Sequence record: PV648359
Origin: Escherichia phage LF82-1
Length of the DNA: 64,000 bases
Strand: one strand, 5' to 3'
Shown: piece by piece, positions 1,513 through 2,906 of the stretch
Position numbering within the stretch: the first letter of the stretch is position 1
Layout of the letters: the number at the start of each line of letters is the position of its first letter
Position numbers and translations under genes: made by a program
Notes under the pieces: model-generated
Databases searched by the model: none
Seen by the model: the letters and a program-made list of their open reading frames with translations, nothing else
Told to the model about the DNA's origin: nothing

Positions 1513-1749
1513 TTTGAATTTCTTGGCAATGTTGATATAACGTAAAGCTTCAGAATCTATACTTCCAAGAACACTATGAAGGAATGCATCAGTGTAGTAT
1601 TCCAATTGAACAGGTTCTTTAATCACTTTAGCCGCTTTGGTTTCAAACAGGCCCATAAGGGCCTTTTTAAGAATTTGTTCGTTAGTGTTCAGTTTTATAG
1701 TCAAAATCTCTTCATTAAGTTGGTGGTTAAAAGTTTTTCTAGAAATCAT
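1510..1749 (-). CDS. Hypothetical protein (79 aa)
   Basis: ORF track; ATGA overlap with upstream ORF suggests translational coupling. Confidence 0.5.
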   Translation of the reverse strand: MISRKTFNHQLNEEILTIKLNTNEQILKKALMGLFETKAAKVIKEPVQLEYYTDAFLHSVLGSIDSEALRYINIAKKFK

Positions 1750-2906
1750 TCCGGGTACCTCAAAGCGTCATCAGAGTTAGTTATATCAATAATAGATATA
1801 GAGTTTTCTGATAACCCATTTTTAGATAACTGACGTTTATAATATCTTTCACAATATGTACACGTCGTCCCGCAGATTTCATTAGCACAATCGAAATCTG
1901 GATGTCTGAACCACCTTTTTTCTAAAAAACCGTCTAACAATGAGGTTTCAATATTTACTGTATGTGAAAACTCAGTCTCATTTTCAAGAGTGAAAATAGT
2001 CTCTAAAGGCTTCCACAGTTCTAACAAATTACCTTCAAACTTTTCAGAAGCGTATGCTTCAAGAACTTTCAAAATGTAGTCTGTGCTACCTGTACGTCCT
2101 GAAACTTTGAATTGAGTGATACCAATATCATTATAAAGTTTCAAATCTTGAGGACGAACAAAACGAGTTCTCAACCAGTTAAATGGGTCTGTATCACGAG
2201 CTTTAATGCAGTGTTGCATTGGATATCCATTTAAGGATTTAGCATCATCAGCTGTAACATCAGTACTATGGAAAATATAGCAAGAGTCACGATAACTACA
2301 ATGTGTTGTATACCCTTTACCAGCATTAGAACAGAACTCATTTACAAGAACTTCAAATATTATATTGTTCTTATTGCAAAACTCTGCTGCACGCTTCAGG
2401 AAAGAAACTGAACGGTTCTTATGAATTCCACAGCAGACCTTTTTGATATTGTATTGGTCATGTAAGTATTTTATTTGAGTTACAGCATCGACATGTAGAA
2501 TTGTTGAAACTTCAATCTCAATGTCTTTATTGACTTCACGAACAATTTCCATAACAACAGGGTTAGCGATAGTAATACGCCATACGCCTATTGACCAAAG
2601 ATACTGAACATAATCCTGAATAGCTTTCTTCTTCCACTCGACTAGTTCTCTTTTTGAACCAGGATTTATCGTGTTGAGTGTATAGTTAAAGCAAATACCT
2701 AATTCGTTACAACGTTTAACGTAATCTTCTAACATCTTTTTGTCAACGTCAGGAAGCCTAAAATCAGGTCTGGCTGCTACAAAAGCCATTTCTCTTGTAG
2801 AGCCATATACTTCGTTTATCAAGCTATTAGGATAGGTTTTATTGAGCTCTACGATTTTATCAAGAAGAGCTAAATCAAAATTCGTTCCGATTTTAAAAGT
2901 ATTCAT
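1746..2906 (-). CDS. Cys-rich hypothetical protein (386 aa) with C-terminal CxxxCxYC motif; part of the modification cassette
   Basis: Long ORF; motifs KVCCGIH, HCSYRDSC, CANEICGTTCTYC; no confident family assignment by eye. Confidence 0.6.
   Translation of the reverse strand: MNTFKIGTNFDLALLDKIVELNKTYPNSLINEVYGSTREMAFVAARPDFRLPDVDKKMLEDYVKRCNELGICFNYTLNTINPGSKRELVEWKKKAIQDYVQYLWSIGVWRITIANPVVMEIVREVNKDIEIEVSTILHVDAVTQIKYLHDQYNIKKVCCGIHKNRSVSFLKRAAEFCNKNNIIFEVLVNEFCSNAGKGYTTHCSYRDSCYIFHSTDVTADDAKSLNGYPMQHCIKARDTDPFNWLRTRFVRPQDLKLYNDIGITQFKVSGRTGSTDYILKVLEAYASEKFEGNLLELWKPLETIFTLENETEFSHTVNIETSLLDGFLEKRWFRHPDFDCANEICGTTCTYCERYYKRQLSKNGLSENSISIIDITNSDDALRYPE

Follow-up and report, generated by a model that had tools for sequence, protein, structure and literature searches.

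A U32-family protein in the DNA modification cassette of an RB69-like phage as a candidate oxygen-independent, prephenate-dependent dCMP hydroxylase

The 64,000-nucleotide stretch of Escherichia phage LF82-1 analysed here (sequence record PV648359; hereafter the window) begins within a DNA modification cassette whose genes all lie on the minus strand (Table 1), the DNA polymerase gene gp43 following that of the arabinose-5-phosphate isomerase in map order. Bases 1400-5900 of the window match phage LF82-2 at 100% and phage RB69 at 97.8% nucleotide identity, and on this basis we assign the window to an RB69-like Mosigvirus genome. The protein in question, of 386 residues, is encoded from an ATG start between the genes for an HAD-type phosphatase and a gp48-type synthase; it is 99.7% identical to RB69p050/NP_861740 (gp50), with 1 mismatch in 386 residues, and we refer to it as gp50. 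An earlier note on this DNA, made from the letters alone, had correctly described the open reading frame (ORF), its richness in cysteine and its position inside the cassette, but could not place it in a family. Drawing on its family, fold, conserved residues, genomic linkage and phyletic pattern, all documented here, we propose, with a confidence slightly better than even, that gp50 is an O2-independent, prephenate-dependent C5-hydroxylase of deoxycytidine monophosphate (dCMP) that backs up the hydroxylase gp48; the iron-sulfur (Fe-S) cofactor, the use of prephenate, the dCMP substrate and the anaerobic role are what we infer.

The DNA of RB69 bears arabinosylated 5-hydroxycytosine, which wholly replaces cytosine and is made at the mononucleotide level, and gp48 produces 5-hydroxy-dCMP (5hodCMP) with a flavin, the oxygen atom coming from O2 as established by 18O2 labelling (PMC13326640). 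The published pathway to arabinosyl-5-hydroxycytosine needs this O2-requiring flavoenzyme, yet the hosts are gut bacteria that often live without O2. As the dCTPase of RB69 destroys deoxycytidine triphosphate (dCTP; PMC13326640, Table 1), a phage deprived of O2 would be left with no cytosine nucleotide for its DNA unless it had a second hydroxylase. The nrdG and nrdD genes for an anaerobic ribonucleotide reductase, also in the window, provide the context of a phage equipped for replication without O2. RB69p050 appears in PMC13326640 as a table entry only, labelled 'sugar or heterocycle reductase' with 5D88 as top hit, and is not discussed; the same paper cites RlhA and the tRNA 5-hydroxyuridine (ho5U) hydroxylation pathways as unrelated to gp48, and leaves the U32 kinship of gp50 and RlhA unmentioned.

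The protein matches the Pfam domain Peptidase_U32 (PF01136) over residues 94-286 with a score of 42.2 bits (gathering cut-off 22.4; E 7e-11), and all homologs listed carry the same domain. Structure prediction, which the earlier note had suggested as a check, yielded a confident AlphaFold2 model from 110 sequences (predicted local distance difference test, pLDDT, 93.5; predicted template modelling score, pTM, 0.91; pLDDT about 94-97 in the region of residues 340-352), the top structural matches of which are U32 and generic triosephosphate isomerase (TIM) barrels; the fold is the U32 TIM barrel of the Mk0906 (5D88) type. When the profile of the phage family was aligned by hhalign with a profile of Escherichia coli TrhP, RlhA, UbiU and UbiV, the two matched with 97.7% probability (E 1e-11, residues 9-291), placing E185, C203 and C209 on TrhP E162, C170 and C177 and the segment FKVSGRT on FKIEGRT. 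Against TrhP or UbiU singly hhalign gave weak, partial alignments, so that the four-sequence E. coli profile was needed, and phmmer found no match among PDB sequences at E <= 1. Pfam, hhalign and the structural matches agree in placing the protein in the U32 family. It is not orthologous to any of the named groups RlhA, TrhP, UbiU and UbiV, the sole NCBIfam match being to UbiU (18.5 bits, far under the cut-off of 440); both DUF3656 and the U32 C-terminal domain are absent from it, and it belongs to a separate U32 subfamily with 114 cluster representatives at E <= 1e-30. Judged by these matches, gp50 is a single-domain member of the misnamed 'peptidase U32' family.

The U32 family consists of TIM-barrel Fe-S enzymes of O2-independent hydroxylation that use prephenate as the oxygen donor. 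Wherever genetics has defined the role of a member, that member is required for an O2-independent, prephenate-dependent hydroxylation (PMC5727448, PMC6599085, PMC10990095). RlhA gives rise to 5-hydroxycytidine in 23S rRNA and TrhP to 5-hydroxyuridine in tRNA, both in a prephenate-dependent manner (PMC5727448, PMC6599085), and for UbiU/UbiV, which act in the ubiquinone pathway, prephenate has been shown to be the oxygen-atom donor (PMC10990095). Hydroxylation of cytosine at C5 is exactly the reaction that the cassette needs.

Cysteine makes up 13 of the 386 residues (3.4%), against a mean of 1.16% in the 72 ORFs of the window with at least 100 codons (binomial P = 7e-4), although the conservation of these residues is stronger evidence than their enrichment. 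Across an alignment of 110-121 homologs (mean column identity 49%), nine cysteines never vary (C158, C192, C203, C209, C233, C340, C345, C349 and C352) and a tenth, C177, is conserved at 98%, as against the variable C66, C72 and C159; E185, G346 and Y351 are each conserved at 90% or above. The three motifs singled out by the earlier note, KVCCGIH (residues 156-162), HCSYRDSC (202-209) and CGTTCTYC (345-352), are all present in the translation. Since C158 is invariant and C159 variable, the 'CC' pair of the first appears to matter through C158 only. The two cysteines of the second, C203 and C209, align with residues essential in TrhP and RlhA, in which E162, C170 and C177, and E161, C169 and C176, respectively, are required in vivo (PMC6599085); in UbiU, the counterparts of the U32-motif cysteines are ligands of a [4Fe-4S] cluster (PMC6747719). 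Most likely the product is, as the earlier note had supposed, a metal or Fe-S protein. Purifying selection acts on the gene: its codon differences from RB69 comprise 19 synonymous and 1 non-synonymous, and those from Serratia phage LC53 comprise 155 synonymous-only and 64 amino-acid-changing.

We then examined the gene neighborhoods of U32 relatives, for which 81 loci of the subfamily, falling into 37 clusters at 90% identity, were collected (individual loci carry L numbers below). A chorismate mutase of the CM_2 type (cut-off 27 bits) is encoded between the U32 gene and the thymidylate synthase (TS) homologue in two phages, Serratia phage LC53 (44.6 bits) and Enterobacter phage Entb_45 (40.9 bits). 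This chorismate mutase family occurs in 51 of 50,697 phage records, and all of the matches listed (40 of the 51) lie inside the cassette. Among loci with a TS homologue, 13 have both U32 and chorismate mutase, 2 have U32 only, none has chorismate mutase only and 16 have neither, such that chorismate mutase is found in 13/15 loci with U32 and 0/16 without, counts that are not phylogenetically independent. Even inside one genus, Kanagawavirus, both genes are present in Entb_45 and both are missing from Kosakonia phage 305. The linkage extends to more distant relatives: a stand-alone chorismate mutase gene lies directly downstream of a 45-50%-identical U32 gene in L041, L044, L046, L047, L050, L052, L065 and L066, and a fusion of 3-deoxy-D-arabino-heptulosonate 7-phosphate (DAHP) synthase with chorismate mutase is encoded within the cassette in L035, L038, L039, L049 and L063. 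With an arabinose-5-phosphate isomerase nearby, the proteins matching DAHP_synth_1 were also considered as 3-deoxy-D-manno-octulosonate 8-phosphate (KDO8P) synthases, a reading rejected on scores of 114-221 bits with DAHP models against 30-67 with KDO8P models; most of these proteins end in a C-terminal chorismate mutase domain.

The distribution of U32 relative to the aerobic hydroxylase is likewise informative. A gp48-type hydroxylase accompanies U32 in only 3 of the 37 clusters, all of them from Straboviridae; in the remaining 34 no TS homologue was found within about 6 kb on either side, and a single pattern-limited scan of IMG/VR detected no member of the gp48 clade on their contigs. These 34 clusters nevertheless include a gp46:47-type glycosyltransferase in 20, a Tmk-like kinase in 20 and an AfhE-like protein in 12. 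U32-only loci occur in genome bins of obligate anaerobes, with assignments to Erysipelotrichales, Oscillospiraceae, Romboutsia, Lachnospiraceae, Tannerella, Phocaeicola and colon Clostridia. Among cultured phages, the 221 records with U32 are all at least 80% identical to gp50, and the host genera listed belong to Enterobacterales or are Shewanella. In the cassettes examined from phages of Acinetobacter, an aerobe, the gp48-type synthase is present and U32 is not. This distribution lends indirect support to an activity in the absence of O2, as the chorismate mutase and DAHP-synthase/chorismate-mutase genes of related loci do to a dependence on prephenate.

Several of the uncultivated loci deserve description in their own right. 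Minimal modules of contiguous kinase, glycosyltransferase and U32 genes are present in L026 (e.g. 4398-7083), L030, L031, L036, L040 and L053, and L039 (405-7074) has a contiguous series encoding glycosyltransferase, kinase, isomerase, an AfhE-like protein, DAHP-synthase/chorismate-mutase, HAD and U32. The latter reads as an RB69 cassette in which U32 and a prephenate supply have taken the place of gp48, and we regard all seven as candidates for new 5-hydroxypyrimidine DNA modifications. A third conserved context, in L002/L061 and L067-L072 (e.g. L071 2996-7086, on a Phocaeicola faecalis scaffold), encodes in this order a GP88-domain protein, a guanylate-kinase/S-adenosylmethionine (SAM)-methyltransferase fusion of 414-453 residues, a protein of about 270 residues and U32; this suggests hydroxylation of a nucleotide followed by O-methylation, the product possibly being a 5-methoxypyrimidine. 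On the phage-like 466-kb JGI contig of L001 (7447-9086) there is an overlap between the U32 gene and the end of a gene for dCMP deaminase; genes for thymidylate kinase, a protein of the uracil-DNA glycosylase (UDG) family and the PolIII alpha subunit lie nearby, with no glycosyltransferase or sugar genes detected. U32 homologs of Clostridia and Desulfobacteraceae with 27-30% identity (L073-L082) are encoded in nonribosomal peptide synthetase/polyketide synthase (NRPS/PKS) clusters, together with radical SAM and B12-binding genes and tandem U32 copies; they have His in place of C209 and are probably anaerobic natural-product hydroxylases.

In light of these observations, we posit that when O2 is absent gp50 would use prephenate to turn dCMP into 5hodCMP, which would then be phosphorylated, incorporated into DNA and arabinosylated by the remaining enzymes of the cassette. 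It would thereby be the anaerobic counterpart of the flavin- and O2-dependent gp48, and would keep the triphosphate 5hodCTP available in a phage that destroys dCTP. A [4Fe-4S] cluster at the U32 motif would be ligated by C192, C203, C209 and C233, and C340, C345, C349 and C352 would bind a second cluster or a zinc ion with a role in electron transfer or structure. By analogy, gp48 and gp50 would form an aerobic/anaerobic pair of the kind represented by TrhO/TrhP, UbiIHF/UbiUV and NrdAB/NrdDG. A small-molecule substrate is favoured, in that gp50 does not have the RNA-binding C-terminal domains of RlhA and TrhP and its next-closest paralogues (27-30%) are those in NRPS/PKS clusters.

Comparison with characterized systems bears out both the likeness and its limits. 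RlhA (YdcP), which acts on C2501 of E. coli 23S rRNA, shares with gp50 the U32 domain, the essential Glu and two-Cys motif and a conserved C-terminal cysteine cluster (PMC5727448), and its prephenate- and Fe-S-dependent hydroxylation of cytosine at C5 is the very reaction predicted for gp50. It differs in being a 653-residue protein with DUF3656 that binds 50S precursors, where gp50 has 386 residues in one domain and a predicted free-deoxynucleotide substrate; the cysteine spacing is CX6CX15CX3C in RlhA and CX10CX5CX23C in gp50, and the similarity is detectable at the profile level only. The gp48 and gp50 pattern mirrors TrhO/TrhP, an O2-dependent and a prephenate-dependent U32 enzyme that generate the same 5-hydroxypyrimidine at tRNA position 34 (ho5U34); facultative anaerobes carry both routes and obligate anaerobes the U32 route only (PMC6599085). 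There, however, the aerobic partner is a rhodanese rather than a flavin-dependent TS homologue and the substrate is tRNA rather than a DNA precursor, and the pairing in the phage is one that we infer. UbiU-UbiV, which function with UbiT, resemble the predicted gp50 in being U32 Fe-S proteins with a small-molecule substrate, prephenate as donor and a [4Fe-4S] cluster per subunit (PMC6747719, PMC10990095), and the distant fourth ligand of UbiU, C232, is comparable to C233 of gp50 (PMC6747719). They form a heterodimer with one cluster per subunit and a lipid-binding partner, whereas gp50 consists of one chain that has two putative metal sites. The structurally characterized Mk0906 (PDB 5D88), a U32 protein of Methanopyrus kandleri, has 247 residues and 14% identity and does not cover the C-terminal four-Cys part of gp50. 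Finally, the flavin-dependent 5hodCMP synthases RB69 gp48, DLP3 gp80 and the HY126 hydroxylase share with gp50 the proposed product and the cassette, gp48 being encoded two genes away; gp48 has a thymidylate synthase fold and uses flavin mononucleotide and O2, and its activity is experimentally shown where that of gp50 is predicted.

More tentatively, and as a suggestion that we hold to be somewhat short of probable, gp50 could be the first to be recognised in a widespread group of viral enzymes that hydroxylate deoxynucleotides at C5 with prephenate. Phages that infect obligate anaerobes, among them gut-metagenome jumbo phages with genomes of 190-466 kb, would have such enzymes as their sole route to 5-hydroxypyrimidine DNA, the hydroxyl being then glycosylated or, in operons with the kinase-methyltransferase fusion, O-methylated, and the supply of prephenate being boosted by a phage chorismate mutase or DAHP-synthase/chorismate-mutase. 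Should this hold, many uncultivated gut phages would have DNA based on 5-hydroxypyrimidines, which would amount to an extensive and so far overlooked class of hypermodified DNA in anaerobic viromes, and the chorismate mutase and DAHP synthase genes would be auxiliary metabolic genes that feed an oxygen-atom donor, a purpose not reported in the literature surveyed. If the proposal for gp50 itself is right, a second, O2-independent hydroxylase would explain how such phages replicate without O2, and among U32 hydroxylases gp50 would be the first whose substrate is soluble and can be purchased, a much easier system for reconstitution than one that needs rRNA, tRNA or a polyprenyl-phenol. Anaerobic fitness would also be expected to differ between RB69-like phages with U32 and JS98-like phages without it, which is of relevance to gut phage therapy. 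The gene, annotated 'peptidase', and the U32 hydroxylase family were known before; the role proposed for gp50, the coupling with a phage-encoded chorismate mutase and the occurrence across phages whose assigned hosts are anaerobes were found nowhere in the searchable literature. The Thanatos, Durham-collection and 2018 RB69 papers contain no discussion of the U32 gene.

A number of points weigh against the proposed hydroxylase role and its anaerobic setting. JS98-like Dhakavirus coliphages (L094-L098, L107) and Kosakonia phage 305 (L058) have the cassette and the TS homologue without U32, from which it follows that U32 is an accessory gene; their loci include kinase, HAD, TS homologue and glycosyltransferase genes and no chorismate mutase, and no arabinose-5-phosphate isomerase gene was found in the 3-kb flanks of the JS98-like ones. 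As phages of facultative anaerobes that are naturally U32-less, they would also offer a natural control for anaerobic growth. By HMM (hidden Markov model) search, no chorismate mutase was found in the window or in RB69-type genomes; the RB69 lineage has lost it, and gp50 would there rely on prephenate taken from host PheA and TyrA, where most relatives bring their own chorismate mutase. The hhalign register around C192 and C203 is ambiguous, such that C192 could instead be the first cysteine of the motif, and the U32-motif spacing of gp50 departs from the canonical CX6CX15CX3/4C (PMC6747719), as it does also in UbiU (CX6CX16CX38C) and UbiV (CXnCX12CX3C). For no U32 enzyme has in vitro reconstitution of direct hydroxylase activity been reported yet (PMC10990095). 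The shared ancestry of the loci tempers the co-occurrence counts, the absence of a TS homologue in distant phages pertains to the flanks and the single scan described above, and assignment of hosts by metagenome bin is weak. In some distant loci dCMP deaminase or dUTPase genes adjoin U32, so that the base there may be uracil. Lastly, nothing relevant that ties U32, prephenate or chorismate mutase to phage DNA modification was found in the searchable literature, a scope without He et al. 2026 (Nat Chem Biol) and Mahler et al. 2025, which may address the gene.

Of the alternatives, the one that fares best retains the prephenate-dependent U32 hydroxylase and changes its substrate: cytosine in DNA, in a post-replicative 'repair' of unmodified C, dUMP, dCTP, or host RNA (tRNA U34 or 23S C2501), in which case translation would be tuned during infection. 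The evidence from the family and from chorismate mutase fits this equally well, the known nucleic-acid substrates of U32 proteins are all RNA (PMC5727448, PMC6599085), and the dCMP deaminase and dUTPase neighbours just mentioned hint at uracil nucleotides. However, at 386 residues against the 653 of RlhA and 453 of TrhP, gp50 is missing their extra C-terminal domains, its recurrent neighbours encode a nucleotide kinase and a DNA glycosyltransferase rather than RNA-modification enzymes, and the complete replacement of C in RB69 proceeds by synthesis at the mononucleotide level (PMC13326640). We judge a different substrate to be unlikely, if well within reason, and dCMP to be the better candidate.

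Considerably less probable is a redox enzyme of the sugar branch, acting on an arabinose/ribulose intermediate or on nucleoside diphosphate (NDP)-arabinose, as would be in keeping with the label published in the table of PMC13326640. The gene does lie between those for sugar activation and those for base modification, and a TIM barrel with probable Fe-S sites would suit such an activity. Yet the Acinetobacter phage DLP3 makes tri-arabinosyl-5-hydroxycytosine (PMC13326640) with the same sugar genes and without U32: there is no U32 gene at the DLP1 locus or in the DLP3 table of that paper, and the 57 records of Acinetobacter phages that have the arabinose cassette yielded no match to U32. Conversely, the minimal modules of L026, L030, L031, L036, L040 and L053 have U32, kinase and glycosyltransferase and no sugar-activation genes, pentose chemistry offers no reason for a linkage to chorismate mutase and DAHP synthase, and a U32 reductase was not found in the literature surveyed. 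The earlier note had envisaged a role in sugar or base chemistry; base chemistry is the most likely of these, and the example of DLP3 makes an epimerase or transferase partner in sugar chemistry unlikely.

That note had also likened CGTTCTYC to a radical SAM motif, and a non-canonical radical SAM enzyme operating through C345-x3-C349-x2-C352 has to be weighed, very improbable as we find it to be. The resemblance is real to the extent that the CX3CXΦC spacing is exact, with an aromatic residue before the last cysteine, that the motif is invariant, and that the fold is a barrel. Nevertheless, there is no Pfam match to Radical_SAM (PF04055) at E <= 0.1 in the protein, no radical SAM fold occurs near the top of the structural matches, which are U32 and generic TIM barrels, and the motif (within residues 340-352 of 386) comes after the complete U32 barrel, where a radical SAM motif would be expected in the N-terminal part of the barrel. 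The invariant C340 suggests a four-Cys, fully ligated site rather than the three-Cys site with an open iron of radical SAM enzymes, and homologs at 27-30% identity keep the four C-terminal cysteines with the spacing CX3CX3CX2C. We therefore presume a second, fully ligated metal or Fe-S site at this position; a C-terminal cysteine cluster is required in RlhA as well (PMC5727448). A genuine peptidase or collagenase-like protease, as implied by the family name, the 'peptidase' annotation in GenBank and PHROGs and the collagenolytic reports on PrtC and HP0169 (cited in PMC5727448), is the least credible reading of all for a cytoplasmic phage gene within a nucleotide/sugar cassette, as the invariant positions are occupied by Cys, Arg and Lys and not by the catalytic residues of a protease, the U32 members with a genetically defined role are all hydroxylation factors (PMC10990095) and the linkage to chorismate mutase would be left unexplained.

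Table 1. Genes and motifs discussed in the text, in coordinates of the window.
Feature	Coordinates	Strand	Basis
3' part of DNA arabinosyltransferase gene, RB69 gp46:47 family, labelled 'GT300'	1..751	-	HMM match, LF82-2 annotation, role from PMC13326640; truncated by window start
Thymidylate-synthase homologue, flavin-/O2-dependent 5hodCMP synthase, RB69 gp48 orthologue	751..1467	-	Pfam Thymidylat_synt; 99.2% identity to RB69 gp48; activity from PMC13326640
79-residue ORF, RB69 gp49 orthologue	1510..1749	-	PHROG 8601
U32-family putative Fe-S protein, 386 residues, RB69 gp50/NP_861740 orthologue	1746..2906	-	ATG start
C-terminal C-x4-C-x3-C-x2-C motif, residues 340-352, containing CGTTCTYC, presumed second metal/Fe-S site	1851..1889	-	Homolog alignment
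U32-motif region, residues 192-233, invariant C192/C203/C209/C233, presumed [4Fe-4S] site	2208..2333	-	Homolog alignment and hhalign
HAD-type sugar phosphatase, AfhF-like, RB69 gp51	2963..3349	-	NCBIfam TIGR01689; PHROG 1238; PMC13326640
Bifunctional sugar kinase and nucleotidyltransferase, AfhE-like, RB69 gp52:53	3349..5034	-	Pfam NTP_transferase and kinase-like matches; PMC13326640
Arabinose-5-phosphate isomerase, RB69 gp55	5216..5851	-	SIS domain, KpsF/KdsD family matches
nrdG and nrdD, anaerobic ribonucleotide reductase	20215..22499	-	Annotation of 100%-identical LF82-2, record-to-window offset 96000

Immediately downstream of the U32 gene, the 79-codon ORF has a start that overlaps the U32 stop codon in an ATGA junction, and the two are on this account probably translationally coupled. 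Its product is 92% identical to RB69 gp49, contains no cysteine and has PHROG 8601 as its sole family match. It was considered as a diverged chorismate mutase and rejected, there being no CM_2 match at E <= 10 and none to an HMM built from the chorismate mutases of relatives. In the Yersinia-phage-type loci L016, L018 and L024 the same family coexists with a true chorismate mutase, and its member sits between the U32 and chorismate mutase genes. The product of this ORF may be a partner of U32.

A scan for promoters and terminators over positions 1-6200 gave counts not above those in shuffled sequence. NrdG, with 6 cysteines in 156 residues, is among the few products of the window that exceed the cysteine fraction of gp50. 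Directly upstream of the U32 ATG the minus strand has an A-run (2907-2920) that is A7, by which the upstream ATG annotated in RB69 (MQKM..., 389 residues) is out of frame; the true start is probably the downstream ATG at 2906 common to both annotations, the alternative being that the length of the homopolymer differs among isolates.

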